NCBI GenBank assembly: GCA_965217585.1
Contig: OZ244561.1
Coordinates: 1,137,424-1,201,423 of the forward strand
Origin: Candidatus Latescibacterota bacterium
GTDB lineage: Bacteria > Latescibacterota > UBA2968 > UBA8231
DNA: 64,000 nt
Direction of reading: 5' to 3'
The stretch's first letter is position 1; each line of letters opens with the position of its first letter. Below the pieces are notes generated by a model, which was not told the DNA's origin, ran no database searches, and saw only the letters and a list, made by a program, of their open reading frames with translations. The position numbers were made by a program, and so were the translations under genes. Below are positions 24,461-50,055 of this stretch, piece after piece.

Positions 24461-25408
24461 ATGCGGCGATTCACAATCGCAGGCATTTTCGGCCTCGCCC
24501 TCGTAGGGGTGGCGAATGCCCAGTTTTTCGATCCGCCCGCTCTGGAGGATCGCAATGGCAGTCAGGGATTTTGGTTTTACATGCTCGAAGTCCCCGATCC
24601 CGGTGCTATCACCATCGACGGGCATAGCGACGACTGGGGTTGGTTCGACCCCGAATACACCTTGACCATGGACGAGTGGCGCGACGAAGGCGACCGCCCG
24701 GCCCCAGACCGCGACGACCTGTTCATCACCACCTTCATGGGCTGGAAGGGCGGCGACGACAACCGCTGGTACTGCTTCTTGGAAGCGGTTGACGACGTGC
24801 TAGCGCACGCCGGCACGAACATCGCCCGTTGGGACGGCGACATGCTACAGGTCGGCCTCGATCCGCAGGATCACGGGCGCGAGCGCAGCCCGGCTTCGGG
24901 TTACACCATGGAGTGGCTGATGGCACCGGGCGACCTCAGTCCGCCGACCAACGTCGCTTTCCGCTATACCGAGCAAGAGGCGTGGGCCGAGTACGGCGAA
25001 TCGCCGTGGATCGAAATGGCCGTGCGCGTCGATCCGCCCGAAGCTTGGGCCGCCGACCTGTGGGCCGAGGGCGGCACCACGTACTACGAGTGGAGCGTCA
25101 AGGTCCTCGCCTTCCAAGATGATACAGGTCCGTCGGCGAGCGAGGTGTGGCAGCTAGACACAGTGGCCGGTGAAGATGGCGCGGGCATGCCTTTCGCCTT
25201 TTGGTACGAAGACGGCGAAGGCCCGGATTCGAGCTTCTCGCCCAGCGAAGACGGCACCCCGGGTGGCCGCAACGACTGGACCACCCGCGGCCCCGAAGCC
25301 TCGGCGCGGCAGTACTACTCCATTGCCAAGCTGCTGCGCGTCGGCGAGTACGCCGCCGCCACAGCAGTCGAGTCATCGACTTGGGGCAAGATCAAGAACT
25401 CGTTCTAA
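24461..25408 (+). CDS. Secreted CBM9/DOMON-like protein
   Basis: Signal peptide MRRFTIAGIFGLALVGVANAQ. Motif ITIDGHSDDWGWF. RBS AAGGAG. Confidence 0.7.
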   Translation: MRRFTIAGIFGLALVGVANAQFFDPPALEDRNGSQGFWFYMLEVPDPGAITIDGHSDDWGWFDPEYTLTMDEWRDEGDRPAPDRDDLFITTFMGWKGGDDNRWYCFLEAVDDVLAHAGTNIARWDGDMLQVGLDPQDHGRERSPASGYTMEWLMAPGDLSPPTNVAFRYTEQEAWAEYGESPWIEMAVRVDPPEAWAADLWAEGGTTYYEWSVKVLAFQDDTGPSASEVWQLDTVAGEDGAGMPFAFWYEDGEGPDSSFSPSEDGTPGGRNDWTTRGPEASARQYYSIAKLLRVGEYAAATAVESSTWGKIKNSF

Positions 25409-25435
25409 ACGCAAGGCGACCGATCGGTCGTAATC

Positions 25436-25472
25436 GTAGGGGCGACCGGTCGGTCGCCCCTACGTTATTTTT
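25436..25472 (+). terminator. GC-rich hairpin (12-bp stem, 4-nt loop) plus T-run; member of a REP-like palindrome family
   Basis: The palindrome gtaggggcgacc-ggtc-ggtcgcccctac is followed by gttattttt, 28 nt after the stop of 24461..25408. Confidence 0.7.
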
Positions 25473-25485
25473 AGGGGGTTGCACC

Positions 25486-26199
25486 GTGTACAAACGGCTC
25501 TGGGCTTGGTTCGTACTGCTAATCCTGCTGCTGGGGGCTTGCGGCCGCTACTTTCACACGCCGCTCCAGCCTGCCAGCCGCCAAGCCGAGGGCATGACCG
25601 TCAACGACGACGGCTCCATCACCTACGCCCTCGACCGCCTGTCGATCAACCTCAAGCCCATGACGGACGAGGAATTAAACCGCCTCGCTCCTGGGCGAGA
25701 TCTGTCTAACAATCCCTATACCTTTGGCGAATGGACCGCCGCGGGCGACGAGTGGACGCCGCCGCGGTTTACCATTTTTCGGCTCAAGGTCAGCAACTAT
25801 CAATATCCCAAGGTCAAACTCGACCCGCTCAACGCGCGCATTACCACGGCCAACACCCGGCAGTACGAGGTACTCAGCTACGCCGAATTATACCAGTATT
25901 TTCGCTCGTATTGGCTAGGCCGCACGGGCCAAGGGCGCAAAACCTTTCAAGCTCGCACGGACGCGCTCAAGCGGACGCTGTACAGCGGGGCCTTGATCTT
26001 CAGCGGCAGCGAAGAACAGGGGTACTTGGTATTTCCCGTGCTCGACGACGATGTCCGGGCGATCCAAGTATACATAGAAAACATCATCTTGCGCTTCGAC
26101 TATGCAGACGCCCCCGTAGAGGCGATTGACCTGAGCTTCTCCTTCCAGCGCGACATCCTGCAAGGGTATGACCCCTCGGCCGCGGTGCGGCTCAACTGA
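25486..26199 (+). CDS. Lipoprotein, first gene of the discoidin/OM operon
   Basis: GTG 25486 lies 8 nt after GGGGG. The N-terminus VYKRLWAWFVLLILLLGAC has a lipobox (LLGAC). The stop overlaps the next ATG (TGATG). Confidence 0.7.
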   Translation: MYKRLWAWFVLLILLLGACGRYFHTPLQPASRQAEGMTVNDDGSITYALDRLSINLKPMTDEELNRLAPGRDLSNNPYTFGEWTAAGDEWTPPRFTIFRLKVSNYQYPKVKLDPLNARITTANTRQYEVLSYAELYQYFRSYWLGRTGQGRKTFQARTDALKRTLYSGALIFSGSEEQGYLVFPVLDDDVRAIQVYIENIILRFDYADAPVEAIDLSFSFQRDILQGYDPSAAVRLN

Positions 26200-28187
26200 T
26201 GACCGCCCGCGCGCCCAGATTCCTCGCCGGCGCCTTCCTAGCGGTGCTTGGGGGACTAGCGCCGAGCAACGCCCAAGTCGAGGTGTGGCATATCGGTAAG
26301 GGGGGGCTTGCGTGGGTCTCGCAAGCCGAGACGCAGATCGGCGCGCTAGACGTCGATGGTGCCCTACAGCCCTTGCAGCTACAGACCGGGGAAAACCTCA
26401 TTGAGCTACTCCGCGCTTCGGGCCAACGCTTTCTCAACGGCCAACCCCGCGACTTCACCCTCGGTGGCCAGCCACGCGCGTGGTCCAACGACGGCTTCTT
26501 CAACCAACTCGCTGGCCCCCTCGACCTGATCGACGGCGATCCCGCGACCTCCTCGTCGGGCGTGTTCAAGACCGCGCAGAGCCAAGCCGGGGCGACGTTC
26601 TTCTGGGATTTGGGCGCACCCTTCCCAGTCAACCGCATTCGCTTCTTTCCCGCTCCCGACGATGACGCCTTTGTCAAAGCCTTTGAACTGCGGGTCAACG
26701 ACGGCGAAAACTTCAACGACATCAATCGGCCGCAATACGAACTCTTGCGGCGGGTAGAAGTCAACCGCGAATCCACAGTCGATATCGAATTTGCCCCCTT
26801 GCAGGGCCGCTTCCTCCAGCTACGCGTGCTGTCGAAGACGGTGTTCAACATCGCGGAGTTTGAAATCTACGGGCAGGGCTTTGTGCCGGTCGCTAGCTAC
26901 GAGTCGGCTCTGCACTCCTTTGGCGGCCCGGTCAACTACGGCCGCTTGCGCGTACACACCACGCATCTCGGAACGACCGGGGCTGCGACCGCGGCCATCC
27001 AGATGCGGACCGGAGCCGACGACAGCCCGCTGGCGTACTTTCGCCGCGACCGCGACACCGGTCGCCAGCAGGAGGTGCCCGCGGCCGAATACAACACCAG
27101 CCTGCCACGGCGCGCCCTGTTCCGCCAAGACGCGGTCACCGGCGAGCTATTAGAGGAACTGGACCGAGCCAGCTATCTCAATCTGCCGATTGAGGAGCAA
27201 GGGCCGGTGCGCGATTTTGTCAAGGGCGACATCCGCGACGACGTGGACAACTGGAGCGCGTGGTCGCCGAGCACGTATATCGCCGGCACGGGTATTGTTG
27301 AGGTGCCCATAGGGCTGCCCAGCCCGCGGGAATTCATGCAGTTCCGCATCCTCTTCGACGGCGACGCTGAAAACGCCGTGCGCATCGACACCTTTCAGGT
27401 GGAGTTTTCGCCTGGGCTGGTCAGCGAGGCCGTCGGCGAGGTGGCCCTCGCCAGCGATCCCTTTCCCGCCAGCGGCCTACTCGAAGTCGCAGGGGGCATC
27501 GACACGACCTTTACCTACGACATCCGCACCGAATTCGCAGCCGGCGTGGCCGGGTATCGCGGCGTCCGCATCGAAGCATTTCCACCGCCAATATTCGAGA
27601 GTCTGCAAATGGGCGACCCCCTCGCGGCCGTAGAAGACTTTGAATGGACGGAGACCGAGAGCGGCTTCGACGTTCTCTTCGCGCCCATCGCCGCCGACAA
27701 CAACCAGCCCCTGCGGATCACCTTCCGCCTGCGGCTGCTGGTGCACAATACCCCGATCAACGCCTATCTCCTCGGCGCAGGGAGCGTCCCACCGCATCCC
27801 ATCGCCCCGGGCAATGCCAGCGAATTAGTGGGCACGAACGCGACCAACGCCTTTGTGACTCAGGCGCAGCCCGAGCTGCAACTAGCACTTTCAACGGCTA
27901 TCATCTCACCTAATGGCGACGGCCGCAACGATGCCGTCGCCATTGACCTCGTGTTGTCCCAGTTTGCCGCGGATACGGCAGTCGCCGTCGAGATCTTCGA
28001 CCTTAGCGGACGCCGGGTGCGGCAGCTAGTCTCCCAACCGCGGGCCGCCGGTTTTTACTCCGAAATCTGGGATGGCCGCGACGAACAAGGCGGTTTGGTC
28101 GCACCGGGCTTGTACCTCTGCCGCGTCGGCGTGGACGCCGACTTCGACGTGTTTGCCGCAGTAGAGCCGATAGGGGTGGCCTATTGA
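26199..28187 (+). CDS. Secreted discoidin(F5/8-C)-like protein with a FlgD-Ig/T9SS-CTD-like C-terminus (paralogue P1)
   Basis: Signal peptide ...GGLAPSNAQ. Discoidin-like LIDGDPATSS...FFWDLGAPFPVNRIRFF...IAEFEIYGQGF. NWSAWS motif. C-terminus ISPNGDGRNDAV...VEIFDLSGRRVRQL...WDGRDEQGGLVAPGLYLCRV...VGVAY. Confidence 0.8.
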   Translation: MTARAPRFLAGAFLAVLGGLAPSNAQVEVWHIGKGGLAWVSQAETQIGALDVDGALQPLQLQTGENLIELLRASGQRFLNGQPRDFTLGGQPRAWSNDGFFNQLAGPLDLIDGDPATSSSGVFKTAQSQAGATFFWDLGAPFPVNRIRFFPAPDDDAFVKAFELRVNDGENFNDINRPQYELLRRVEVNRESTVDIEFAPLQGRFLQLRVLSKTVFNIAEFEIYGQGFVPVASYESALHSFGGPVNYGRLRVHTTHLGTTGAATAAIQMRTGADDSPLAYFRRDRDTGRQQEVPAAEYNTSLPRRALFRQDAVTGELLEELDRASYLNLPIEEQGPVRDFVKGDIRDDVDNWSAWSPSTYIAGTGIVEVPIGLPSPREFMQFRILFDGDAENAVRIDTFQVEFSPGLVSEAVGEVALASDPFPASGLLEVAGGIDTTFTYDIRTEFAAGVAGYRGVRIEAFPPPIFESLQMGDPLAAVEDFEWTETESGFDVLFAPIAADNNQPLRITFRLRLLVHNTPINAYLLGAGSVPPHPIAPGNASELVGTNATNAFVTQAQPELQLALSTAIISPNGDGRNDAVAIDLVLSQFAADTAVAVEIFDLSGRRVRQLVSQPRAAGFYSEIWDGRDEQGGLVAPGLYLCRVGVDADFDVFAAVEPIGVAY

Positions 28188-28201
28188 CTGCGGTGAGCAA
28201 C

Positions 28202-30241
28202 ATGCGGTGGCTGGTGCTGATCCTCATCAGCAGCAGTCCAGTGGCGGCGCAGACGCCCTCGGCTTGGGTCATAGGGGGCACAAGCGGCGAGCCTTGGGCT
28301 GAGGCGGTGGAGCGCTGGATCGCCCTCGACGACACGGTGCGCTCCGGGGCGATTCAGCCGCGAGCGATTCCCCTAGGCCACACGGTTACTCGCCAACTCG
28401 TGCGCACCGGCATTGCCACGACCCAGCGCAACCTCTTTGGCTATCGCTGGAGTTTGCACAAGGGGCCGCGCCAGATCGAGGCCGACACCTTAGAGGTCGG
28501 GTGGCACCCGCGCCTGTGGCAGGGGGGCGGAACCAACGCCCTCGCCGCAGAGGTTATGCGCGGGCTAGTCGATGGCGACGAGCTAACCGCGGCTTTTACC
28601 CACAGGGCACGGGCCGATGGCCGCCCCAACAGCACGCAGTTCATCACGCTCGACTTGGGCGTGCCAGTGCCCATTGACAGCATCGTGTTTTTTCCGCCGC
28701 AGACCGGGCTGACCAGCGGCAACCAGCGGCAGCGCGAGCTGTTCGCCCGTGCCTATGAAGTTAGCCGGACCAACGTGCCGGTCGAATGGCTGATCTTTGA
28801 GGACGAAACCTCATCAACTGGATCGGCGGGCTACCACCCGCTCGACGAGATTCTCGCCAGCACCTTTGCCAACAACACCAGCGTCGTCTCCCTCGCACCG
28901 GAGCTGCGCTTTACCCGCTTTCTCCGCTTCAAGTTCGGAGAAGTTTCCACCACGACCTTGCTGGCCGAAATCGAGGTCTTTGGCCGCGGCTACCCCCAAG
29001 AGGCCCGCTACATCTCCGCACCCCATTCTTTCGGCCAAGCCGTGAGCCTGGGACGGGTCGCGTGGAAATTCACTCGCTATCGCCAATTGCCTTCCGGCGC
29101 GATCACCGCCGACCCCACCGCACCGGTGCAGCTAAACTTGCAGACCCGCGCTGGCTTCGACGACGATCCCAAGACGTACTTCATCTTCGACGACCTTGGC
29201 CGACTGGTGGAAGTAGATGAGAAGACTTATTTCGACTCGCCGCGGGTGGTGGAACGATTTTCCGAGGGGATCGCCGGCTTCCGGGCCAAGCGCGACGACG
29301 ACGTAAAAAACTGGAACAACTGGTCGGTCGTTTACCAAGCGTCGGGCGACGAGATCCGCTCCTCTGACGGGGCCGAGTTCCTCCAGTTTCGCTTTACCAT
29401 CACCACCGAAGACCCGCTGGCCTTTGGCGTACTCGACAGCTTGGCTTTTGCGGTCTCGCCACTGTTGGCCGACCGCGCGCTGGCGGAAATTGCCCTCGAC
29501 GGGCGCGCCGATGCGGACGGGGCCATCGAGGTGCCGCTCGGGGTCGTCCAGCGCTTTGTCTATCACATTCGCACGGTGGCTGGCACAACCGACCGCGCGG
29601 GGTTCGACGGCATCGAGTTAGAGGTCCCTCCGGCCAGCCGCTTCCTCGACCTGACTATCGACGACCAGCCAGCGGCCGAGGGCGTGGATTTTTCCCTCGC
29701 CGCCAGCGACGGGCGGTTGCGCTTTACCTTTCCCACGGCGATCAAGGAAGACAAGGCGTTTCGCGTGCGCTTTCAAGGCGCGGTCTTCCAGCCATCAGTC
29801 TTTTTGGCCAGCCGCCTTTTTAACACCTCGGCGGCGAGCTTACCGCAGTCCATTGAAGCTGGAGACGCCCACGCCGACATAGCCAGCAACAGCATCCAAG
29901 TCGTCTCCAGCGACGAGGCTTTGGGCATTCTCGGGGCGATTGGGCTATCTGCCCCCGTGGTCTCGCCCAACGGCGATGGGGTCAACGAGCAGGTCGCCAT
30001 TGGATTCGACTTGTTCGGCGTTGCTGGGGGCGCGTTGCGGGTAGAGGTGCGCGACCTGAGTGGTCGTCGCTGCGCCGCGATTTTGGACGCGCGGGCCGCC
30101 GCCGGGCCGTACGCGCTGCGGTGGGATGCGCGGGACGAGCAGGGGAAACTCGTGCCTCCAGGGCTGTACCTAATCCGCATCGAGGTCGAGGTCGATCGCG
30201 GCACCTTCGCCCGCATGCAAGCGGTCGGGGTCGCGTACTGA
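28202..30241 (+). CDS. Secreted discoidin-like protein with a FlgD-Ig/T9SS-CTD-like C-terminus (paralogue P2)
   Basis: ATG 28202 gives signal peptide MRWLVLILISSSPVAAQ. Motifs LVDGDELT...ITLDLGVPVPIDSIVFF...LAEIEVFGRGY and NWNNWS. C-terminus VSPNGDGVNEQV...VEVRDLSGRR...WDARDEQGKLVPPGLYLIRI...VGVAY. Confidence 0.8.
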   Translation: MRWLVLILISSSPVAAQTPSAWVIGGTSGEPWAEAVERWIALDDTVRSGAIQPRAIPLGHTVTRQLVRTGIATTQRNLFGYRWSLHKGPRQIEADTLEVGWHPRLWQGGGTNALAAEVMRGLVDGDELTAAFTHRARADGRPNSTQFITLDLGVPVPIDSIVFFPPQTGLTSGNQRQRELFARAYEVSRTNVPVEWLIFEDETSSTGSAGYHPLDEILASTFANNTSVVSLAPELRFTRFLRFKFGEVSTTTLLAEIEVFGRGYPQEARYISAPHSFGQAVSLGRVAWKFTRYRQLPSGAITADPTAPVQLNLQTRAGFDDDPKTYFIFDDLGRLVEVDEKTYFDSPRVVERFSEGIAGFRAKRDDDVKNWNNWSVVYQASGDEIRSSDGAEFLQFRFTITTEDPLAFGVLDSLAFAVSPLLADRALAEIALDGRADADGAIEVPLGVVQRFVYHIRTVAGTTDRAGFDGIELEVPPASRFLDLTIDDQPAAEGVDFSLAASDGRLRFTFPTAIKEDKAFRVRFQGAVFQPSVFLASRLFNTSAASLPQSIEAGDAHADIASNSIQVVSSDEALGILGAIGLSAPVVSPNGDGVNEQVAIGFDLFGVAGGALRVEVRDLSGRRCAAILDARAAAGPYALRWDARDEQGKLVPPGLYLIRIEVEVDRGTFARMQAVGVAY

Positions 30242-30251
30242 TGGAGACACT

Positions 30252-32609
30252 ATGAAAACTCTACTGCTAGCAGTTGCTTCCCTCCTGCTTATGGCCGCGG
30301 CGAGCGGCCAGAACCTGCGCTTTGCCGGGTCCGACTTTGCTTCTTGGGCCCATCCGCAGGGGCTGGTCGAGGTCTTGCCGCAAGGCATTGAGGTGAAGCG
30401 CTTTGAGCAGCGGTTCAACGCGGTGGCCAACGCCCGCGAGTTTTCCTCTAAGGCCATCGGCGACTACGGGCAGCGCTTTGTGCGCACGCCGTCCAACCAG
30501 CAGCAGGCGGACCTGGCCGGCGACCAAGACCCCAACACTTGGTGGCAGCCCGACCCGGACACCCCGGTGCAGTTGTGGTGGCTGGAGCTGGACTTGGGGC
30601 GCACCGTGGTGGCCGACAAGGTGCGCGTCCGCTTTCCCAACCGCGAGGAGGCCAAGCCCTTTAGCTTTTTCTCGGTGTACGTCAGCCCGGGCATTCCGGT
30701 CTTCGGCGGCCGGGCCAAGCGCATCGTCTATCGCCGGCTGGGTAGGCCGGTCAACAACAACACCGAATCACTAGTCGAATTTGACCTCACCACGACCGGC
30801 CTCGCCTCGGCCACGGGCGAGTACCTGAGCGCGAGCGAGGTCCTCGACTTCGACATCGTGCGCTTTGTGCGCTTTGAAGCGGCCGGCGCAACGCCCGATG
30901 CCGCGCTCGCCGAAATAGAGGTGGACGGCATTGGCTTCAACCTCTCCTCCATGGTGCAGACCGAAGATCGGACCGAGCACTGGGGAGGACGGACGTGGAC
31001 GTCCAAGCACCGCGACTGCCAAGGCTGCGGCAAGGGCAGCGGGTCCCAGGCCCTCATCGACCAAGACGTGGGATTTCGCGGGTGGAATATCGAGGGGTCA
31101 GACAAGGGCAACTGGCGCGATTCAGGCGTCTGGTCCGTCGTCGATTTCGGCAACGTCTTCCGCGTCGATCGCCTCATCTGGATGCCGATTGTGTCGGGCC
31201 GCGGCCCGTTCCTCTACGGATTCCAGCGCGACAAGCAGGGCAGTTGGCCCAGTTTCGATTTCTTCGCCTCCGACGGCACCCCCAGCAACAGCGCCGATCC
31301 AGTCGTCGAAGGCCCTTTCCACTACGACTTGCTGTCGTCCGTGGCCAACTCCGGCCGCTATCTGTTCGACTTCCAGTTCGAGCCACGCGCGTTGCGGCTG
31401 CTGATGTGGCGCGTGACGCGGCCTCAGCAGTTCCACCGCGCCGTCCAGCTCTTCGTCTTCCACAGCGAGGGCTATCCCGTGCAAATCGAGCTGGAGTCCG
31501 CAGACATTTTCCTCGGCGGCGCCCGCAGCATGCGCTTCGTCGAATGGGACGCCGACCTGCCGCCCGGAACCCGCATCGAAGTGGAAACCCAGACTGGCAA
31601 TGGCTTTCAGACCATCAAGCGCTACTTCCTAACCAACGGCAAAGAAGTAACTAAACAAGCCTACGAGGCGGCCAAGTCCCGCAACCGAGCCGACATCGTC
31701 GAGGAACGGGTGCGCGACGACACCTGGAGCGCGTATAGCCAACCCCACCGGTTCTCCGGGCAGGCATTCCTCTCGCCGTCGCCACGGCAGTGGCTGCGGG
31801 CACGGGTGCGGCTCATCAGCGACGATCCAGCGGCCTTCCCCACCCTGCGCTCGCTCACGTTTGTGGCCAACGCGCCGATAATCACGGCTGGACTAACGGG
31901 CCGCGTCTTCCCCCGCGAAGCCCCCATGGACACCTTGCAGATGTTTCGCTACACCATCGCGCCGGTGGCCTTCAACAGCCGCGACGCTGGGTTCGACCGC
32001 GCACTCATCCTCCTCCCGCCCGGCGGCGGCCGTGACGCCGCATTTATCGGCGCATCCGTAGGAGGAGCCGAGGTCGCGGCCACCGGCTTGGTGCGGGGAG
32101 ATTCTCTCTTAGTGGAACTGCCGCCGCCGCTGGTCCGGCGGGATTCGGTCGCCATCGCCTTTTCCACGCGCCTGTCCCACAGCCCCACGGTATTTAACGC
32201 GTTCGTTTTTAACTCGACCGCAGAAGATAACCTCCAAGGCGTTGTCCCCGCCGAGTTCGGCGCTGACTTGGTCTTCGTGCCCGAGGCGGTCGCCAGCGGC
32301 TCGTTCATCCGCAATGTCGAGCACACCCGCTCGATAACCCCCAACGGCGATGGCGCAAACGACCAATGCGAACTGCAATTCACCATCGTCAAGACTGAGC
32401 AAGCACCGCAAGTACAGATCTTTACCCTAGATGGCCGGCCCGTGGTCGAACTGGCTAGCCAAGGCACACCGGGGCGGCGCTTCTACTACGTCTGGGACGG
32501 ACGGAGCGCCGACCGCGCAGTGCCGCCCGGCATCTACGTCCTGCGCATTGCCATAGAAGCCGATGCCCGCGCCGACCGCGTTTACAGGCTTGTACATGTC
32601 GTTTATTAA
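30252..32609 (+). CDS. Secreted discoidin-like protein with a FlgD-Ig/T9SS-CTD-like C-terminus (paralogue P3)
   Basis: Signal peptide MKTLLLAVASLLLMAAASGQ. Motif WWLELDLGRTVVADKVRVRF...LAEIEVDGIGF. C-terminus ITPNGDGANDQC...IFTLDGRPV...WDGRSADRAVPPGIYVLRI...VHVVY. GGAG RBS. Confidence 0.8.
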   Translation: MKTLLLAVASLLLMAAASGQNLRFAGSDFASWAHPQGLVEVLPQGIEVKRFEQRFNAVANAREFSSKAIGDYGQRFVRTPSNQQQADLAGDQDPNTWWQPDPDTPVQLWWLELDLGRTVVADKVRVRFPNREEAKPFSFFSVYVSPGIPVFGGRAKRIVYRRLGRPVNNNTESLVEFDLTTTGLASATGEYLSASEVLDFDIVRFVRFEAAGATPDAALAEIEVDGIGFNLSSMVQTEDRTEHWGGRTWTSKHRDCQGCGKGSGSQALIDQDVGFRGWNIEGSDKGNWRDSGVWSVVDFGNVFRVDRLIWMPIVSGRGPFLYGFQRDKQGSWPSFDFFASDGTPSNSADPVVEGPFHYDLLSSVANSGRYLFDFQFEPRALRLLMWRVTRPQQFHRAVQLFVFHSEGYPVQIELESADIFLGGARSMRFVEWDADLPPGTRIEVETQTGNGFQTIKRYFLTNGKEVTKQAYEAAKSRNRADIVEERVRDDTWSAYSQPHRFSGQAFLSPSPRQWLRARVRLISDDPAAFPTLRSLTFVANAPIITAGLTGRVFPREAPMDTLQMFRYTIAPVAFNSRDAGFDRALILLPPGGGRDAAFIGASVGGAEVAATGLVRGDSLLVELPPPLVRRDSVAIAFSTRLSHSPTVFNAFVFNSTAEDNLQGVVPAEFGADLVFVPEAVASGSFIRNVEHTRSITPNGDGANDQCELQFTIVKTEQAPQVQIFTLDGRPVVELASQGTPGRRFYYVWDGRSADRAVPPGIYVLRIAIEADARADRVYRLVHVVY

Positions 32610-32622
32610 GAGGGAGTGCACT

Positions 32623-35268
32623 GTGAGACGTCGAATCTCCACACTACTAATTTGTCTATTCGCTTGGACGCCGCCGCAAGAGGCCAGCGCCCAACGCGCC
32701 ACTGGGTACGACAATCCCTATTACACCACAGGCGCTGAAGTCTCTCCGGCGACCCTCGTGCCCTCGGTGCGCAAGTGGTATCTGCCGCAGCGGCTGTACT
32801 CGCTGTACGACTGGCGGCAAGAGCAATACTCCAACTACGCCCGCGACCACTACGAGCGCTACACCGATGTCTTTTTGGAAGGCTCGCCGTTCTACGACGT
32901 GTACGGCGATTACATCACCCAAGGCTGGCTGGTGTACGACTGGACCGAAGACTACCCAGAAGACAACGGCAGCATCATTACCAAAAATCCGCGCTTTCGT
33001 TCGTGGTTCAACAACCTGCTCGTATCGTCGAGCCATTCCGGGGAGTTCTACTCGGCCCTGATGGTCGGCGACGGCATCCGCACGGCCCTGACCCCCCTGA
33101 CGTTTTCCAAGCCGCGCTTCGACGGCATTCAGTGGGACCTTATAACCGACAAGTACGCCCTGACCATGCTATCGTCGCGGGTCAGCAACACTGGCGAAAT
33201 TTCCTCCAGTGAAGTCGGGGGTGGCGTCCAGGCCAATACCTTCACCACCCTGATGGCCGCTAGGGGACGGGTGCAGGTCGGGGATTTTGCCGCCCTCGGC
33301 GCGACCTTTGTCAATGCGGCGCATCGCAACTCCAACCTGCCGTTTGGCGACAACTCGCTCAGCGGCTTGCTCAGCGGCCCAATGAACTCGGACTTTGTGC
33401 GCTCCATCGTCGTGCGCATTTCCGACGATTCGCCCGAAGACGGCGAGGGTGGCGCGCTGCTGTCGCGCTGGCGCATCTTCATCGATGGCGTCGAGCACAC
33501 CGGAGACATCGTCCCCGTGGTCGAAGGCGGCATTCGCCGCGGCGGCGCGATTGTGGCCAGCGGCACGGATGTCATCACCCTGACCTATAACATCGAAGAC
33601 TTCTCCCCGAGTACAGAAGACGCCATCGACGATTTCCGCGAGATCAAGCGCATTGAAATCGGCCTCGTACTGGCCAACGACTACAAGGTCGAAGTAACCT
33701 CCAACAAGCAAACCAACAACCTCGGCACGCCCGTATTCCTGCCGGTGTTGCGCGCAGCCGGCAACGTCAAGGATGGCTCGAATCAGGCATTTCACCGGTT
33801 CAGCTACGGCCTGCCGACCGGGACCCGCATGTTGGGCTTCGACCTCGCCATTGCCGACCTGCAAGGCTTTGACTTCCGGGGCGAGTTCGTCCGCAACTTT
33901 CAGTACCGCCGCTTTCCCAACGAGAACGTGGCCAAGAATCAGACGCTGGCCACCAACGAGGCCCAAGCCCTGTACGCGACCGCGCAGAAACGCAACTATC
34001 CCTATACGTTTTTCGCCGAGGTTTTCAGCATCGACTCAGATTACTCCACCCGCGCCTTTATGCCCAACGCCGAGGGACACGTGTATTACGACAACGAGCA
34101 GCGGCACCTGTACGAATTCGTCGATGACAACGACGATCAGGACGAGCTGCCGGACTGGCCGCGGCGCACGTTCGGCAGCCGCGTCAACACTCGGCAGGGG
34201 CAGAATCTGCTGACCGACGCCGCGGTCTTCCCGGGCATTGACGAGAACAACGACGACATTTCGGATTTCAACCGGAACTTCAACACCCAGCCCGACTACG
34301 CGGAGCCGTTTCTGCGCTTTGAGGTGGACCCGCCGGAATTTTTGTTTGGCATGGACATGAACAGCAACGGCGTCATCGACCGCTTCGAGGACGACGGGGA
34401 AGCCGATTACCCCTACAAGCTGGGCCGCCGGGGACTCAACACCTATGCAGCCGTCGAAATCCTGCCCCGCACGACCGTCATGGTTGGCTATCTCGACCAG
34501 CGACTGCTAGATACGGCCCGGGAAAACCAAGCTGCCTACCTGCTGCTGACCGCGAAAAAGGAATTTCCCGCAAAGGATTTCAGCGCGTGGCTGATTGCCA
34601 ATCCGCGCAAGGTCCGAGACGACATTCCCGACGATGTGCTGTTGTGGCGCGACCTGCCCGGCACGCGCGGCCGTTCGGTCTTCACCCGCGACCTTCTGCC
34701 AGCACGCGACGCCTTCGTCAATACCACGTACCTCGAAGTACACTACGACCGCTACCTGCCATTGACGGCCAAGGTCAAACACGAATTCTATCAGCAATTG
34801 GGGAATCAGCAAGACGAGTTGCGCGACCAGAGCTTCTTGGGCATCGTCGTCAAAGGCGAGTACTCCACCCACATTCGCGGCTGGACTATGGTGCCCAAGT
34901 GGAAACAGCTTTACAACAACGAGGTGCCGGCGCAGCGCAGCGCGCTCAAAATACGCGAGCTAACGGAAATTTTCTCGCTGCAAGCCGTGCGCCGCATCAA
35001 CCGCAACATGCGCTTCATCGCCGGGGCCGAGTGCGAGCTGTTCAACAATCTCCGCCCCAAGCCAGACCCCCTGCCCTCGGGCTACCTCCTCGACGGCACC
35101 ACGTGGGTACTCGCCGGCCAAGTCGCCAACGACTCCGCGTACTTGGGCTATGCCCTGACGGCCAATGTCGGCGCGCGCTGGATCCGCAACAACCTCGACG
35201 GGTCGCCGGCTTCGTCCGAGCTGCTTTCCTTCATCACGGTGTACGCGGGCTTGGGCACGGAACGCTAG
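32623..35268 (+). CDS. Large putative outer-membrane protein (~880 aa), last gene of the discoidin operon
   Basis: GTG 32623 lies 6 nt after GAGGGAG and gives signal peptide VRRRISTLLICLFAWTPPQEASAQ. Aromatic-rich beta-strand segments. An Asp/Asn-rich putative Ca-binding stretch (GIDENNDDISDFNRN...MDMNSNGVIDRFEDDGEADY). Confidence 0.7.
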   Translation: MRRRISTLLICLFAWTPPQEASAQRATGYDNPYYTTGAEVSPATLVPSVRKWYLPQRLYSLYDWRQEQYSNYARDHYERYTDVFLEGSPFYDVYGDYITQGWLVYDWTEDYPEDNGSIITKNPRFRSWFNNLLVSSSHSGEFYSALMVGDGIRTALTPLTFSKPRFDGIQWDLITDKYALTMLSSRVSNTGEISSSEVGGGVQANTFTTLMAARGRVQVGDFAALGATFVNAAHRNSNLPFGDNSLSGLLSGPMNSDFVRSIVVRISDDSPEDGEGGALLSRWRIFIDGVEHTGDIVPVVEGGIRRGGAIVASGTDVITLTYNIEDFSPSTEDAIDDFREIKRIEIGLVLANDYKVEVTSNKQTNNLGTPVFLPVLRAAGNVKDGSNQAFHRFSYGLPTGTRMLGFDLAIADLQGFDFRGEFVRNFQYRRFPNENVAKNQTLATNEAQALYATAQKRNYPYTFFAEVFSIDSDYSTRAFMPNAEGHVYYDNEQRHLYEFVDDNDDQDELPDWPRRTFGSRVNTRQGQNLLTDAAVFPGIDENNDDISDFNRNFNTQPDYAEPFLRFEVDPPEFLFGMDMNSNGVIDRFEDDGEADYPYKLGRRGLNTYAAVEILPRTTVMVGYLDQRLLDTARENQAAYLLLTAKKEFPAKDFSAWLIANPRKVRDDIPDDVLLWRDLPGTRGRSVFTRDLLPARDAFVNTTYLEVHYDRYLPLTAKVKHEFYQQLGNQQDELRDQSFLGIVVKGEYSTHIRGWTMVPKWKQLYNNEVPAQRSALKIRELTEIFSLQAVRRINRNMRFIAGAECELFNNLRPKPDPLPSGYLLDGTTWVLAGQVANDSAYLGYALTANVGARWIRNNLDGSPASSELLSFITVYAGLGTER

Positions 35269-35307: not shown

Positions 35308-36300
35308 ATGGGCAACTCGGGTAACAACCTCCTTATAGGGTTTCTGGTCTTCAGCGTTTTGTTTTTTGCGGTGGCATTGCTCGTGGGGCATGACGACGTG
35401 GACGGTGCGGACAGTTTGGCTACATCCGCTTCAGGCACGGCGCGCGGGGACCGTCTCACCCTCGAGAGTCGGCAGTTGCGGCTCGTGTCGACGGTGTGGT
35501 CGCCGTTCACCAACGCGCCAGGACAGCCGCGGTTCGCCCTCAATCTGGTCGGCGAGGCGCTCCGACGCGTGGGGATCATCGCCGAAACGGTCATCGTGGA
35601 CGAGGCCAAGTTTACTTCCTCACTGCTGAGCGGCGAGTTCGACGGGAGCGCGGCCGTGTGGAAGTACGCGGAGCGCGAACCCGTGCTGATTTACTCGCAG
35701 CCGTATGTCTGGAACCGGTTGATCCTCGTCGGGCGGCAGGGCAGCGACGTGTCCGCGACCTCGCTGGCCGACCTCGCCGGCAAACGGATCGCCCTAGTCG
35801 CCGGGTACGTGTATGGCGAGGAAGTCGAGACAACGGACGGGCTGCTCATCGTTGGCTCGACCGGCGAAGAGGACAGCGTCGCAAAACTCCTCAACGGTGA
35901 GGTGGACTACACGCTGATGGACGACTTGGTCGTCCAGTACATCCTCAGCAACTACGAAGAAGAAGCTCAAACGCGGCTGGCGTTCGGCTCGACGCCGCTG
36001 CTCACACGCTCGCTTCACCTCGCAATCCGCCGGTCGCTTCCAGACGCCGAGTCGATCATCTCGCGGTTCAACGCCGAGCTGCGCGGCATGATCGCCGACC
36101 GCACCTACCATCGCCTGTTCCACCTCGAATGGATTCAAGCGGACGTCGATGGCGACGGTCGCAGCGAGCAGGTCCCTTACAACGACCAAGTCGGCCCGCG
36201 CCCGCCGGAGCATTCCTACAAGCTCTCCGCGACGGGCAGTCCGACCGCGAGGCCCGGCACGACGCAGCGTTTCTACTTCATTCGAGCAACCCAAGGCTGA
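35308..36300 (+). CDS. Membrane-anchored family-3 solute-binding-protein-like protein
   Basis: The N-terminal TM leader is shared with 37036 and 42295. The body LRLVSTVWSPFTNAPGQP...LSGEFDGSAAVWKYAEREPVLIYSQPY...LAGKRIALVAGYVYGE resembles SBP_bac_3. No permease or ATPase is nearby. Confidence 0.7.
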   Translation: MGNSGNNLLIGFLVFSVLFFAVALLVGHDDVDGADSLATSASGTARGDRLTLESRQLRLVSTVWSPFTNAPGQPRFALNLVGEALRRVGIIAETVIVDEAKFTSSLLSGEFDGSAAVWKYAEREPVLIYSQPYVWNRLILVGRQGSDVSATSLADLAGKRIALVAGYVYGEEVETTDGLLIVGSTGEEDSVAKLLNGEVDYTLMDDLVVQYILSNYEEEAQTRLAFGSTPLLTRSLHLAIRRSLPDAESIISRFNAELRGMIADRTYHRLFHLEWIQADVDGDGRSEQVPYNDQVGPRPPEHSYKLSATGSPTARPGTTQRFYFIRATQG

Positions 36301-36316
36301 TGCGGGACTGACCCAG

Positions 36317-37039
36317 ATGTTTGTGCCAGTGTCGATGTCCCTGCTGTTTTCGTTTCTCTTCGCCCTGCCCGTGACCTGGGTGTATCGCTGGACTCGGCCC
36401 CGCAAGAAATACAGCCAGGCCTTTGCCCAGACCCTCCTCGTCGTGCCCATTGCGATTGCCCTCGTCGTGTTTCTCGTCAAGGACAGTGTCGCCCTCGCCT
36501 TCAGTCTCGCGGGCATTGTCGCTGCGGTTCGCTTTCGCACGTCGTTGAACGAACCCATGGATGCCACCTATATGTTCATCGTCATTGGCATCGGGTTGGC
36601 GGCCGGTATCCAGTACGGTTCAGTGGCGATCCTGGCATCGGTGGCTTTCAATACCGTTGCACTTGGCGTCTGGCGCATGAACTGGGGAGCAGAGCCTGCG
36701 GTCCTATCCGGGTTCAAGTTGGTGCGTTCGGCCAAGGAGGGGTCGTTGACCGGTGTGAGCGGCGCACAGGCGGGTAAAGCTCCCAAACCGTATAATGCCA
36801 GGCTCAGGGTACACACGACGCAGATCAAGGCGGCGCAGCAGGCCGCTGTTGCGCTCCTGCCGACCTATGCCAAGCGCTGGCAGCAGGTGCGGACTGTAAA
36901 ACAGAAAGACGGCACTGCGATAGTCGAGTTTGACGTTCGGCTGAAGAAAAAAACGGATCCGGCCGCTTTCACCGCAGCGCTTGAAAAAAGCGCTGAGGGG
37001 CATACCCGCAAAGTGGAGTTGGAAGGTATGGGTAAATGA
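36317..37039 (+). CDS. DUF4956-like membrane protein (copy A, N-terminally shorter)
   Basis: The segment FVPVSMSLLFSFLFALPVTWVYRWTRPRKKY...ALAFSLAGIVAAVRFRTSLNEPMDATYMFIVIGIGLAAGI matches my recollection of the DUF4956 core. Paralogue of 41282..42298. Confidence 0.7.
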   Translation: MFVPVSMSLLFSFLFALPVTWVYRWTRPRKKYSQAFAQTLLVVPIAIALVVFLVKDSVALAFSLAGIVAAVRFRTSLNEPMDATYMFIVIGIGLAAGIQYGSVAILASVAFNTVALGVWRMNWGAEPAVLSGFKLVRSAKEGSLTGVSGAQAGKAPKPYNARLRVHTTQIKAAQQAAVALLPTYAKRWQQVRTVKQKDGTAIVEFDVRLKKKTDPAAFTAALEKSAEGHTRKVELEGMGK

Positions 37040-38052
37040 GCAGCCGGGGTAACAACTTCCTGATAGGGTTTCTGGTCTTCAGCGTTCTGCTTTTTGCGGT
37101 GGCATTGCTCGTGCGGCAGGACGCGGCGATCGATTCCGACGTGGACGTGCAGCATCATAGCACAGCAGGGATCGCACATGCGAAGGAGGACGAGGCAATC
37201 GATTCCAACGTGGATGCCGCGGACAGTTTGGCATCCACATCCGCTTCAGGCACGGCGCGCGGGGACCATCTCACTCTCGCGAGTTACGACCTCGAAAAGC
37301 CGGCGCGGTATTTCAAGCTGCCGAAGCGGTTGCGGGAGATTTCCGGCTTGGCCATGCTCGCCGAGAACCGACTCCTCGCGCACGATGACGAAAGGGGCGT
37401 GGTAGTAGAGATCGATTATCGCGATGGTTCGATTGTAAAGGCATTCGCACTCGGCGGTCGGCGCGGTCCGGTCGCCGACGACTTCGAGGGCATCGCCGCG
37501 GCTGCCGGTCGCATATACCTTGTCTCGAGCTCAGGACGGTTGTACGAGTTTGGCGAAGGTGCCGACGGGGAGGCCGTTCTCTACAATCTGTATGCAACCG
37601 GCATTGGACGAGATTACGAAATAGAGGGACTCGCCTACGACCCGGACCAACGAGTGCTGTTGCTCGTCAGCAAAAACCCCAAAAACCCCGGGCAGGCGGG
37701 CCTGATAGCGATATATCGCTGGTCCGTCGATACCAAACAGCTCGTCGAGGATGGCCGTATCCTCCTAGAGGCCTCCGCGCTGGCGCGCCGCATTGGCAGC
37801 AAACGATTCCAACCTTCGGGCATCGAGCGGCACCCGGTATCGGGAAACTACTTTCTCGTGGCTGCCCGCCAGCGCGCCGTTGCCGAGATTACCCCACAGG
37901 GACAGATTCTCGCCGTAGCCGAACTGGCACCCGGTCGGCATCCGCAGGCCGAGGGCATTTCCTTTGCTTCCGACAATACCTTGATCATAGCCGACGAAGG
38001 GGCGGGGAAGCGCGCACGCCTGAGCTTCTACCCCGTTGCAAAGGGCCGCTAG
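37036..38052 (+). CDS. YjiK/SdiA-regulated-like beta-propeller protein, membrane-anchored (copy A)
   Basis: TM leader, then repeated blade motifs EISGLA, DFEGIAA, IEGLAYD, PSGIERHP and AEGISF. ATGA overlap with the upstream gene. Confidence 0.75.
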   Translation: MSSRGNNFLIGFLVFSVLLFAVALLVRQDAAIDSDVDVQHHSTAGIAHAKEDEAIDSNVDAADSLASTSASGTARGDHLTLASYDLEKPARYFKLPKRLREISGLAMLAENRLLAHDDERGVVVEIDYRDGSIVKAFALGGRRGPVADDFEGIAAAAGRIYLVSSSGRLYEFGEGADGEAVLYNLYATGIGRDYEIEGLAYDPDQRVLLLVSKNPKNPGQAGLIAIYRWSVDTKQLVEDGRILLEASALARRIGSKRFQPSGIERHPVSGNYFLVAARQRAVAEITPQGQILAVAELAPGRHPQAEGISFASDNTLIIADEGAGKRARLSFYPVAKGR

Positions 38053-38135
38053 CGGCGCGCAAAAGAGCGACAATCTGCCGGCGCATTGGATGGGCAGGAC
38101 GTACAGTTGACAACCCCAAAAGCGAAGGAGTTTCC

Positions 38136-40847: not shown

Positions 40848-40850
40848 CCG

Positions 40851-41030
40851 AGGGAAGCGGCGAGGCCCATGTTCAACAACAGCCTCGTGCGCCTCGCAGG
40901 GTATTACTTCGCGTGGTACCTCGGCCTGTGCCGCTACCGCATCAGCACCCTCAAGAGACAGGACGACAACAAGCAGAGCAATCGCCCGGCGACGCAGCCA
41001 TGGACGGATGAAGCGCGCGATTCGGTTCAT
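40851..41030 (-). pseudogene. Relic 5' end (signal-peptide region) of a third Omp85-like paralogue
   Basis: MNRIARFIRPWLRRRAIALLVVVLSLEGADAVAAQ aligns with the copy-B N-terminus MNRNEHLSSPWLRRRATALLVAALHLGGADAVVAK, with matching DNA runs. Similarity fades and ends at the stop codon of copy A. Confidence 0.5.
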
Positions 41031-41281
41031 AAAATCGGATGCTCGTTTTTGCCCTGTTTTTGACGGGCGTGCTCATTCAGCGCGTCAAGGGCTTGTTCCC
41101 ATACCCCGCGTTTAAGCTATAGTACAAACACAGCTCTTTTAACTCAACAGCTTCTAATTAATTGCACACAATTGCGCTTCAATTTTTTGGTGTATATCTT
41201 AGCCGACCGCGGAGCGTTCTGTTCGCATCTGTGATCCCGACGCGACCTGCATTGCGGAAACAGTGGTAAAAGGAACTGATA

Positions 41282-42298
41282 ATGCTCGACAAAATAACTG
41301 AGGGGCTCGACAAAATAACAGATAGGCTCGACAACGTAATCGTCCGTCTCGTGGCTTACTATATTGCCATATCCCTTTTTTTTGCGAGCATTTTGTTGTT
41401 GTTGCCAGACATCTCGATTTACATAACCAAGGGAGAGATGAGTTCCATATTAGCCATTTTGTCATCCCCGCAATTCGGGGCAGAGTTCGGGCGCTTACTG
41501 GAAGAGTCCAGGGTCTCCGGGGCCGATCCGAAGCTGGAACCGGAAGAGATCGAGCGCTTACTGGAAAAGTCCGGTGGCTTCCACCTCTCGACGTTCGTGC
41601 CGATTTCGATGGCACTGCTGTTTTCGTTTTTCTATGCCCTGCCCGTGACTTGGGTGTATCGCTGGACCCGGCCCCGCAAGAAATACAACCCAGACCTTGT
41701 CCATACCCTCCTCGTCGTGCCCATTGCGATTTCCCTCGTCGTTTTTCTCGTCAAGGACAGTATCGCGCTCGCCTTCAGTCTCGCGGGCATTGTCGCCGCA
41801 GTTCAGTTCCGCGCGACATTGAGGGACCCCCTAGATGCCACCTACATGTTCATCGTCATTGGCATCGGATTGTCGGCTGGTATCGGTATCGGTCAAGTGG
41901 CTATTTTGGCCTCGGTGGCTTTCAATGCCGTTGTTTTGGGCATCTGGCGCATGAACTACGGGGCGAAGCCTGCTGCCCTGTCCGGGTTCAGGCTGGTGCG
42001 TCCCGCCAAGTCGTTGCCCGGTGTGAGCGGCACCCAGGCGGGTAAAATCCCCAAATCGTATAATGCCAAGCTCAGGGTACATACGGCGCAGGTCGAGGCG
42101 GCACAGCAGGCCGCTGTTGCGCTCTTGGCGACCTATGCCAAGCGGTGGCGACAGGTGCGGATTGTGCAGCAGGAGGACAGCACTGCGATCGTCGAATTTG
42201 ACGTGCGGCTGAAGAAAACCGCAGATCCGGCCGCCTTCACTAGAGAGCTTGAAAAAAGTACAGAGGGCCATACCGTCAAAGTGGAGCTGGAATTATGA
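41282..42298 (+). CDS. DUF4956-like membrane protein (copy B, full length)
   Basis: 338 aa. Carries an extra N-terminal ~100 aa with a TM helix, then the same core as copy A (ALPVTWVYRWTRPRKKY...ALAFSLAGIVAAVQFR...). Confidence 0.8.
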   Translation: MLDKITEGLDKITDRLDNVIVRLVAYYIAISLFFASILLLLPDISIYITKGEMSSILAILSSPQFGAEFGRLLEESRVSGADPKLEPEEIERLLEKSGGFHLSTFVPISMALLFSFFYALPVTWVYRWTRPRKKYNPDLVHTLLVVPIAISLVVFLVKDSIALAFSLAGIVAAVQFRATLRDPLDATYMFIVIGIGLSAGIGIGQVAILASVAFNAVVLGIWRMNYGAKPAALSGFRLVRPAKSLPGVSGTQAGKIPKSYNAKLRVHTAQVEAAQQAAVALLATYAKRWRQVRIVQQEDSTAIVEFDVRLKKTADPAAFTRELEKSTEGHTVKVELEL

Positions 42299-43260: not shown

Positions 43261-43316
43261 TTGCAGGCTTGTCCCGGCGGACGGAATCTTTGTGGCCACC
43301 CAGGCGTTACTTGGGA

Positions 43317-44471: not shown

Positions 44472-44508
44472 CGTGATTTCGCGTGACCGGACAATCCGAA
44501 CCGGGTTT

Positions 44509-47154: not shown

Positions 47155-47211
47155 CTCTTTATCACCCTCCATGGCTAAACAACGGACAGCAAAGTACGGG
47201 ATAGATAGCTC

Positions 47212-48570: not shown

Positions 48571-48819
48571 TGTCCCTACTTCCTTTTTTGGCTTACTTCC
48601 CGAATCACAATGCATTGATCGGCTTCCACGTCCACCAATGTTTGCACGCGCCGCTGGGTCAATCTGCGTGTGATCACCTAAACCGAGCATCAGGGACACG
48701 TCGCTGGACCCCATGTAGCCGTAGCTGCAGCGGATCTCCCGCGTCTGCACCAAGTAGCCAGCCACGGCGCGGACACTCTCGATCAACAGCGCCGGCCCAC
48801 AGCGGCAAGGTGCGCGGCA

Positions 48820-50007: not shown

Positions 50008-50025
50008 GTAAAAAGTATAGACCGC

Positions 50026-50055
50026 GTAGGGGGCGGTTTGCAAACCGCCCCCTAC
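50026..50055. repeat. REP-like GC-rich palindrome (GTAGGGG...CCCCTAC family)
   Basis: The sequence gtagggggcggtttgcaaaccgccccctac is a perfect 30-nt palindrome. It lies between divergent gene starts, so it is not acting as a terminator. Confidence 0.6.

Follow-up and report, generated by a model that had tools for sequence, protein, structure and literature searches.

In the T9SS (type IX secretion system), cargo proteins whose C-terminal domain (CTD) is of type B bind a cognate PorP/SprF barrel whose gene adjoins theirs and depend on it for secretion and anchoring, as in the pairs SprB-SprF and PG1035-PorP (PMC9143113, PMC12618676). The subject of this report is a gene cassette in which three paralogous secreted proteins, P1, P2 and P3, stand beside a barrel of a different and much larger kind. 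The cassette occupies positions 24461 to 35268 of a 64,000-nucleotide stretch of contig OZ244561.1 (assembly GCA_965217585.1, positions 1,137,424 to 1,201,423, forward strand) from a Candidatus Latescibacterota bacterium, and this whole stretch is hereafter called the window. Members of the Latescibacterota are widespread in sediments, soils and sponges; none has been cultured, and their cell surface is little characterised. The cassette is conserved and is undescribed in the databases and papers searched. By analogy with the T9SS type-B cargo and PorP/SprF pairs, it may tentatively be read as building a barrel-anchored, lectin-like binding complex at the cell surface.

A six-gene cassette in several diverged copies

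A sequence-only reading of the window had picked out five tightly packed, co-directional genes at 25486-35268, and both the open reading frame (ORF) listing and direct reading of the junctions agree with the genes, overlaps, gaps and motifs that it described. On the plus strand, a lipoprotein gene (GTG 25486 to 26199; 237 residues, lipobox LLGAC) is followed by the genes for P1 (26199-28187; 662 residues), P2 (ATG 28202 to 30241; 679 residues), P3 (30252-32609; 785 residues) and an outer-membrane beta-barrel (GTG 32623 to 35268; 881 residues, in line with the 878-890 residues of its homologues). The stop codon of the lipoprotein gene overlaps the P1 start at 26199 by one nucleotide (TGATG), the later gaps measure 14 (P1-P2), 10 (P2-P3) and 13 nucleotides (P3-barrel), and a Shine-Dalgarno sequence, GAGGGAG, precedes the barrel GTG at 32610-32616. 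The gene junctions look translationally coupled. While the five genes do belong to one unit, the conserved unit begins one gene upstream of 25486, at 24461, with up315 (24461-25408, plus strand), which encodes a secreted protein of 315 residues resembling family 9 carbohydrate-binding modules (CBM9). Recurrent partners also lie outside 25486-35268, among them a peptidyl-prolyl isomerase (PPIase) and a tetratricopeptide repeat (TPR) protein. The earlier suggestion of a 'self-contained' system finds no support here, and it had passed over both the multi-copy nature of the unit and its occurrence in a single phylum. From up315 to the barrel gene, the locus is a translationally compact, co-evolving, multi-copy six-gene cassette.

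Conservation of gene order was followed in 86 fetched loci with flanks of up to 10 kb; 79 contain a full-length barrel gene and 83 are Latescibacterota cassette loci. Across the 86, the families of up315, the lipoprotein, P1, P2, P3 and the barrel travel together. The order up315-lipoprotein-P1-P2-P3-barrel recurs exactly in 33 of the 79, and most of the others are truncated or rearranged, which upholds the view of the genes as one real functional unit. In many additional loci the same order is cut off by a contig end. Rearranged forms include P2-P1-P3-barrel-up315-lipoprotein (6/79), lipoprotein, P2 and up315 on the minus strand and then barrel-P1-P3 (4/79), and P1-P3-barrel-(up315)-P2-lipoprotein (3/79). 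P3 is the gene that adjoins the barrel most constantly. Insertions of 2-5 kb separate P3 from the barrel in three loci (L009, L017 and L023) and P1 from P2 in five (L036, L038, L039, L051 and L078); the P1-P2 inserts carry an opposite-strand gene of about 518 codons, possibly a mobile element, which recurs in eight loci.

Over 48 complete cassettes, the six families show pairwise identities that correlate with one another at r = 0.94-0.99; therefore the cassette duplicates and diverges as a unit and its parts are not mixed. Among divergent cassettes, the best co-divergence with the barrel is that of P3 (r = 0.82) and up315 (r = 0.80). Genomes hold at least three to six diverged copies, with at least six in CBDCDC01, five in OZ244897.1 and four each in OZ241889.1 and OZ242361.1. 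Each copy takes up about 11 kb, so that the cassette represents a large and repeated investment in protein families that the databases leave unnamed. All 455 close homologues of the barrel are annotated as hypothetical, none with a Pfam domain, and their named hosts are metagenome-assembled genomes (MAGs) of Latescibacterota or MAGs labelled Gemmatimonadetes. A scan of species-representative genomes returned 505 barrel relatives, the best 80 of which are all in Latescibacterota-type MAGs, and the window shares about 90-91% DNA identity with several cassette-bearing chromosomes. Near-identical cassettes are present on OZ244790.1, OZ220690.1 and CBDCDC01, among others. The cassette is confined mainly to Latescibacterota MAGs.

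One alternative is that the genes are chance neighbours without a common function. The probability of this is close to nil, because the synteny data contradict it. The junctions look coupled, the same six families co-occur in several gene orders and co-diverge, and a discoidin-CTD protein, the barrel and the lipoprotein domain are kept together even in distant lineages.

Secreted proteins, lipoprotein and barrel

The paralogy of P1, P2 and P3 and their common architecture, both proposed in the sequence-only reading, are borne out. P1 and P2 align over their full length (30% identity, E = 1e-53), and P3 joins them through its C-terminal 330-450 residues (E = 1e-11 with P1 and 3e-20 with P2). 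P1 comprises a signal peptide, a discoidin-like head of the CBM32 type, a beta-sandwich middle region with an NWSxWS motif, an immunoglobulin (Ig)-like domain, and a C-terminal domain like those of FlgD-Ig and CHU_C. The P1 hidden Markov model (HMM) matches P3 twice, at residues 2-235 and 236-435, indicating two tandem discoidin-like modules. Shared motifs are AE(I/F)E(V/I)xGxG(F/Y), NWSxWS, SPNGDGxN and a C-terminal VGVAY or HVVY. In the AlphaFold2 (AF2) model, which has a predicted local distance difference test score (pLDDT) of 89, P1 is all-beta. Its head superposes on the CBM32 structures 4a41 and 4a44 at a template modelling (TM) score of 0.70 in Foldseek, and the rest forms a chain of Ig and other beta-sandwich domains ending in a tail that resembles PorU (6za2) and FlgD Ig domains. 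The FlgD structures 3osv and 3c12 are weak matches. The Foldseek search of the P1 model returned no enzyme or catalytic fold. Galactose oxidase was rejected as a relative, given that its whole-chain TM scores of 0.14-0.19 reflect shared discoidin and Ig domains only and no oxidase fold.

The discoidin-like heads and CTD-like tails find support in the P1 model and in the Pfam domains of homologues, most of the 114 P1 homologues having PF00754 and PF13860 in precomputed domain lists and some having PF13585. The likeness of the tails to T9SS CTDs stands in motif and fold and falls short in HMM scores, the NCBIfam scan giving FlgD and T9SS-CTD matches below threshold only. For FlgD_ig (PF13860, gathering threshold 27), P1 scores 33.3 bits and lies above the threshold, P2 lies below it at 22.4 bits, and P3 is not listed; FlgD_ig is a fold-level family label from which no function follows. 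For F5_F8_type_C (cut-off 28.2), P3 and P2 reach 22.3 and 13.6 bits. By sequence comparison the triplication is old, as had been supposed, because P1-, P2- and P3-type genes are still distinct in cassettes whose barrels share only 44-50% identity. Three more distant relatives (L084, L087 and L088) each have a single P-type homologue with the full architecture, accompanied in L084 and L088 by a separate protein that shares the FlgD-Ig tail only.

The family profile of up315 matches the CBM9 structure of Thermotoga Xyn10A (1i82, E = 4e-4), and 7 of 18 family members match Pfam CBM9_1 (PF06452, best E = 3.3e-6), with no Pfam match for the window copy. An invariant motif, T-A-V-E-x-S/T-W-G-x-I-K, followed by 3-9 residues, ends the protein (25360-25408 in the window; homologues in L001-L083). 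Its appearance is that of a tag for sorting or docking, and it was matched to no described signal. Between up315 and the lipoprotein gene, at 25433-25475 on the plus strand, lies a hairpin with a GC-rich 13-bp stem and a T-run, an intrinsic terminator or attenuator placed 11 nucleotides before the lipoprotein GTG. Of 50 related loci, 30 have a hairpin with a T-tail at this position, in quite different sequences; in random 270-nucleotide windows, 12.5% contain any match and 0.5% contain one with a stem of at least 9 bp. Because this terminator follows the up315 gene, it may cause partial termination, so that up315 would probably be made in excess over the products of the downstream genes.

The lipoprotein family was detected by jackhmmer in 64 of the 86 loci and comprises 562 clusters, all labelled hypothetical and with no precomputed Pfam matches. 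The lipoprotein has no match to a Pfam, NCBIfam or PDB family, and Pfam scans of 15 members gave nothing significant. In the PDB, the family profile matched Tako8, a designed repeat protein, but the match is an artefact that arises from eight repeated segments of 4 bits each. Some homologues (P0464, P0514 and P0515) are named 'predicted small lipoprotein YifL' by JGI, presumably through a match at the level of the lipobox only. YifL, or LptM, is the lipoprotein partner of the LptDE barrel, and LptD is among the Foldseek matches of the cassette barrel. As a further observation on export signals, Gln stands at or next to position +1 of the predicted signal peptidase I (SPase-I) cleavage site in up315, P1, P2, P3 and the barrel (ANA-QF, SNA-QV, VAA-QT, ASG-QN and ASA-QR, with the hyphen at the cut). 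This pattern resembles the 'Q-rule' of Bacteroidetes, which concerns N-terminal pyroglutamate.

The last protein of the cassette is a barrel, as had been asked of it. Its AF2 model has a mean pLDDT of 70, rising to 80-94 in the strands, and a count that starts at the periplasmic C-terminus arrives at about 24 strands joined by periplasmic turns of 2-7 residues. This strand count and the standard topology rule for outer-membrane proteins place residues 245-406 of the model (an insert) and residues 479-611 (an acidic segment) outside the cell, where they would form two extracellular modules. The insert is a beta-sandwich of about 160 residues. The acidic segment, about 130 residues long, is rich in Asp and Asn and resembles calcium sites; it contains the motifs DDNDDQD and DxNxNGxID, the second of which is an EF-hand or dockerin-like loop. 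Together with an aromatic-rich N-terminal stretch, these two modules are the most conserved parts of the protein, with 59-73% identity in MAFFT groups, and 60-73% for the two modules by themselves, versus 30-40% in the strands. Such conservation of the modules appears more in keeping with a surface for protein docking than with an exposed receptor loop. The acidic motifs are near-diagnostic, given that the pattern has 580 matches in the genome collection and 505 of them belong to the family, and together with the fixed gene order they offer simple annotation markers for cassette loci.

No match to the barrel was found in Pfam or NCBIfam at E <= 0.1, nor to any PDB sequence family, by sequence and profile searches; single PDB profile matches to Dam1 and EcoR124 M are noise. 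The sequence-only reading had been unable to match the system to a described one, and that remains the case: neither the barrel nor the lipoprotein has a family in Pfam, NCBIfam or the PDB, while the genes are syntenic in other genomes and do not resolve into ordinary families. An exhaustive profile search gathered 949 clusters at 50% identity (E <= 1e-3), and by these searches the barrel is a new large barrel family, unnamed in current databases. Foldseek returned large outer-membrane barrels only, namely MtrB, Deinococcus SlpA, LptD and the ushers FimD and PapC, at probability 1.0 and TM scores of 0.2-0.3, or 0.14-0.18 for LptD; since the TM scores are low despite that probability, what is matched is a class of folds rather than a family. 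MtrB ranks first, three SlpA structures (8agd, 8ae1 and 7zgx) rank second to fourth (E ~1e-7) and LptD ranks fifth, while structures of SusCD and other TonB-dependent transporters (TBDTs) come far down the list (E >= 5e-4, TM < 0.2).

Several described barrels were considered and set aside as identities. LptD leaves no family signature, its TM scores are 0.14-0.18, and a lipopolysaccharide (LPS) exporter, being essential and single-copy, would not occur in at least three to six copies per genome. No usher signature is present in the cassette proteins. TBDTs, including SusC, are rejected by the absence of Plug and TonB_dep_Rec domains from the barrel in Pfam and NCBIfam scans. The Omp85 families, including BamA and TamA, do not match it either, while two Omp85 proteins of about 900 residues elsewhere in the window do match.

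The ranking of SlpA raises the prospect of a structural envelope module, in which the barrel is a distant relative of Deinococcus SlpA and the Ig-rich P1, P2 and P3 form a surface layer or scaffold without a specific ligand. Apart from the Foldseek ranks, 10 of 52 distant members of the barrel family give sub-threshold matches to Pfam SlpA_C (PF21620, cut-off 35 bits; best 30.2 bits, E = 2e-7), with no other family matched. P1, P2 and P3 are also chains of beta-sandwich domains, and up315, if made in excess, would suit such a layer. Yet the TM scores with SlpA are only 0.2-0.27, the family profiles find no SlpA sequence in the PDB, and neither a surface-layer homology (SLH) domain nor a coiled coil is present. 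For one layer, a genome would not be expected to hold several diverged copies, and the lectin-type heads point to ligand binding, so that this role is improbable.

The size of the barrel suggests another role, namely that of a self-contained export and assembly device. The ~24-strand barrel would then be a translocon, either usher-like or akin to a miniature T9SS pore, through which P1, P2, P3 and perhaps up315 pass and on which their tails stay docked, with no need for a general T9SS. Ushers have 24 strands as well, and FimD and PapC are among the structural matches. A conserved N-terminal region of about 90 residues ahead of the barrel, not placed by AF2, could act as a plug or serve to recruit substrates. 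Each cargo set has one barrel and the two co-diverge strictly; the cassette is linked to a periplasmic PPIase or chaperone; and the searched literature restricts T9SS mostly to Bacteroidota. The terminator after up315, the gene of a putative major subunit, also recalls pilus operons, in which a terminator follows the major subunit gene. However, the TM scores with ushers are only about 0.2, no usher Pfam family is matched, and neither an energy source nor an usher-type chaperone was identified. P1, P2 and P3 are large, folded, multidomain proteins that would have to unfold to pass a 24-strand pore, and a T9SS may be encoded in these genomes. Such a device is unlikely; were the barrel its own translocon, it would represent a new outer-membrane secretion route.

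Neighbouring genes and distant relatives

Beyond the six genes, the most frequent companions of the cassette are a TPR protein (58 of the 86 loci; median distance to the barrel, 3 kb) and a PrsA/SurA-like PPIase lipoprotein (54 of 86), followed by FG-GAP/ASPIC proteins (37 loci), a polytopic membrane protein of the DUF6785 family (22), GFO_IDH_MocA oxidoreductases (18), and transporters of the ATP-binding cassette (ABC) and major facilitator superfamily (MFS) types. In the window, the PPIase (47212-48786, minus strand; Pfam Rotamase_2 and SurA_N matches) and the TPR protein (48820-50070, minus strand; TPR matches) are probable accessory proteins; the former is homologous to the recurrent PPIase family, and the latter both to the recurrent TPR family and to TPR genes in distant operons. 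The two genes lie about 12 kb downstream of the barrel, beyond a variable region, and in a close relative (L006) only about 3.8 kb separates the barrel from the TPR gene. The first ~45 codons of the PPIase ORF (48650-48786, minus strand) encode what in an ASPIC/UnbV protein is the C-terminus (Pfam UnbV_ASPIC, residues 11-43). This piece looks like the remnant of a deleted FG-GAP/ASPIC gene, an intact copy of which adjoins the TPR gene in related loci.

Several of these neighbours would suit a glycan import machine, in which the barrel is a SusC-like uptake channel, P1, P2, P3 and up315 are surface glycan binders, and the lipoprotein is a lid or plug, the whole perhaps energised by ExbBD and TonB from elsewhere. 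Five lectin-type modules per cassette and a multi-copy, diverged organisation reminiscent of polysaccharide utilisation loci (PULs) are in keeping with this role, as are the DUF6785 proteins, the oxidoreductases, and the ABC and MFS transporters. Some distant barrels even share single operons with ExbB-ExbD-ExbD (L087 and L088). Import is nevertheless quite unlikely. The barrel has no Plug or TonB_dep_Rec domain, ExbB and ExbD are near none of the 83 Latescibacterota cassette loci, carbohydrate-active enzymes (CAZymes) are not recurrent neighbours, and the extracellular modules, instead of being adapted to a ligand, are conserved more strongly than any other part of the barrel.

The named distant members of the barrel family again come from Latescibacterota or 'Gemmatimonadetes' MAGs, with one cluster from Ignavibacteria and Bacteroidota MAGs. 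Their operons retain the core parts in differing numbers. In L087, from an Ignavibacteria MAG, the order is ExbB-ExbD-ExbD, a discoidin and CHU_C protein, a 310-residue protein, the barrel, a TPR protein of 1045 residues, DUF4159, and a second DUF4159 fused to a lipoprotein-like domain. L084 and L088 have one FlgD_ig and one discoidin protein with three barrels in tandem, and then a giant TPR protein, small proteins and DUF4159 in differing order; L088 also has ExbB-ExbD-ExbD and a second TPR-family protein of about 425 residues, and L084 also has a lipoprotein homologue. The tandem barrels of this distant marine lineage measure 893, 926 and 1046 residues in L084 (4283-12891) and 902, 943 and 1057 residues in L088 (4455-13174). 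Three barrels with one discoidin-CTD protein are the inverse of the one barrel and three cargoes of the window. DUF4159 occurs in only two of the 83 Latescibacterota loci.

These distant operons invite a bolder version of the export idea. The cassette would be an autonomous, T9SS-independent outer-membrane device for export and display, in which the barrel recognises the tails of its own cargo, passes the cargo across the membrane and keeps it docked on the extracellular modules. The ancestral form, as in the Ignavibacteria-like and marine relatives, would have been driven by the ExbB-ExbD-ExbD motor and the giant TPR protein. This proposal is doubtful; if true, it would reveal an unrecognised principle of secretion and surface assembly in the Fibrobacterota-Chlorobiota-Bacteroidota (FCB) group, possibly an evolutionary relative of, or an alternative to, the T9SS CTD pathway.

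The remainder of the window contains further genes of interest. The variable region between the barrel and the PPIase and TPR genes (35308-47172), much shorter in close relatives, holds two paralogous modules: DUF4956 proteins (36149-37039 and 41282-42298; 78% identical), phytase-like/SdiA-regulated proteins (37036-38052 and 42295-43260; 71% identical) and the ~900-residue Omp85-family barrels mentioned above (38136-40847, plus strand, and 44509-47172, minus strand; 54% identical). It also encodes an SBP_bac_3-like protein (35308-36300) and a metallophosphatase (43269-44471), and the SBP-like protein and both phytase-like proteins have a near-identical N-terminal membrane anchor. Two tandem paralogues of 274 residues at 9909-11554 (minus strand) are 43% identical and match CBM9_1 and CBM9_2 at or near the Pfam threshold; they have no obvious signal peptide and are not close relatives of up315. 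A cluster at 15442-19804 (minus strand) encodes a transporter of the MMPL/RND type (768 residues), a LolA-like protein and a DUF1302-like outer-membrane protein, and near it, at 13507-14859, is an extracytoplasmic function (ECF)-type sigma factor whose C-terminus is extended by a long stretch. At 55340-61162, genes of a type I restriction-modification system (HsdM, two HsdS specificity genes and one of the RhuM family) lie at an end of the window where the GC fraction drops to 0.42-0.53 from about 0.6, as would suit an island acquired horizontally. The 64-kb window gave no matches in Rfam and tRNA scans.

Proposed role and comparison with known systems

The tentative reading set out at the start, that of a barrel-anchored and lectin-like surface complex, may be given in steps. 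All six products would be exported by the Sec pathway, five with SPase-I signals and one with a lipobox. The 881-residue protein would fold into the ~24-strand barrel in the outer membrane, its two conserved extracellular modules serving as a docking platform. P1, P2 and P3 would reach the cell surface, each with one or two CBM32-like heads, beta-sandwich spacers and the C-terminal FlgD-Ig/T9SS-CTD-like sandwich, by which each could be held on the barrel of its own cassette in the manner of T9SS type-B cargo on a cognate PorP/SprF barrel. The lipoprotein and the CBM9-like up315, the latter probably in excess, would complete the complex, and the PrsA/SurA-like PPIase and the TPR protein may help in assembly. 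Once finished, the complex would display five carbohydrate-binding-type modules and no enzyme. Its likely job would be to bind a polysaccharide or glycoconjugate, either for attachment to particles or hosts or for glycan capture. Different cassettes would serve different ligands or conditions, so that their multiplicity could provide alternative specificities or regulation.

A number of observations weigh against this proposal. The T9SS side of the analogy is short of diagnostic signals: for CHU_C (PF13585, cut-off 27), P1 and P3 score 23.0 and 26.1 bits; for the type-B CTD model TIGR04131 (cut-off 35), 14 and 20 bits; and for the type-A model TIGR04183/Por_Secre_tail (cut-off 23), 14.6 bits each. 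The barrel, with 881 residues, some 24 strands and two large extracellular modules, is not a PorP_SprF protein, which none of its Pfam or NCBIfam scans matched. In the searched literature, T9SS is described mainly from Bacteroidota and no paper links it to the Latescibacterota, the first genomic account of which makes no mention of such a cluster (PMC4454575). On the lectin side, the window copies of P2, P3 and up315 lie below the Pfam cut-offs for their lectin-type domains, and the P1 head is no more variable than the rest of the protein in the conservation profile; therefore ligand diversification is not evident. Glycoside hydrolases and lyases are absent from the recurrent cassette neighbours, and the nearest candidate for such an enzyme in the window, an ORF at 2939-5353 (minus strand) about 19 kb upstream, has only a weak match to an alpha-galacturonidase model. 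Localisation, docking, protein contacts, ligand and export route, moreover, all enter the proposal by inference. If the surface-complex reading is true, it would show how Latescibacterota attach to or capture polysaccharide. For further work, the P3-barrel pair provides a defined target for structure prediction and heterologous expression.

When the cassette is set against described systems, each offers a partial likeness. As in the SusC/SusD PULs of Bacteroidota, multi-copy, diverged cassettes unite a lipoprotein and a large outer-membrane barrel with surface proteins that bind carbohydrate and are not catalytic; unlike them, the cassette has no Plug or TonB-dependent receptor domain, a SusD-like fold was not detected in it, and CAZymes do not recur beside it. 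The LptD-LptE and MtrB-MtrA-MtrC systems likewise combine a barrel of similar size (24-26 strands) with a lipoprotein, and in E. coli surA adjoins lptD just as the cassette is linked to a PPIase. Unlike in those systems, neither an OstA/LptD nor an MtrB signature is present in the sequence of the cassette barrel, and there are no cytochromes. SlpA_C, from the giant SlpA barrel of Deinococcus-Thermus, is the only sequence family with any signal, in distant members only and below threshold. SlpA is a 30-strand barrel; the window barrel, unlike it, has no SlpA_C match, no SLH domain and no coiled coil, and the PDB profile search was negative. The chaperone-usher systems of FimD and PapC share a 24-strand barrel with an N-terminal periplasmic region, Ig-like secreted partners, and a terminator after a possibly abundant subunit gene. 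In contrast to these, no cassette protein matches the usher family (PF00577) or a PapD-like chaperone, the TM scores are about 0.2, and the partners are multidomain proteins of 660-785 residues rather than pilins.

The precedent for the proposed reading lies in the T9SS type-B pairs. No T9SS model reaches its cut-off in the 64-kb window, the GldK score being 49 bits versus 350 and falling on an FGE-sulfatase protein, and the CTD HMM scores of the cassette tails are below their cut-offs. The cassette also departs from the type-B plan in having three paralogous cargoes per barrel, together with a lipoprotein and a CBM9-like protein. Like type-B cargo, however, its beta-rich proteins exported by the Sec pathway end in a beta-sandwich of about 90-100 residues with a SPNGDGxND-type motif and are encoded beside a dedicated barrel, one cargo set to one barrel, and the weak CHU_C and TIGR04131 matches add to the likeness. 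Should the surface-complex reading prove right, the rule that CTD cargo is paired with an adjacent cognate barrel would hold outside Bacteroidota as well, and for a new barrel of much greater size.

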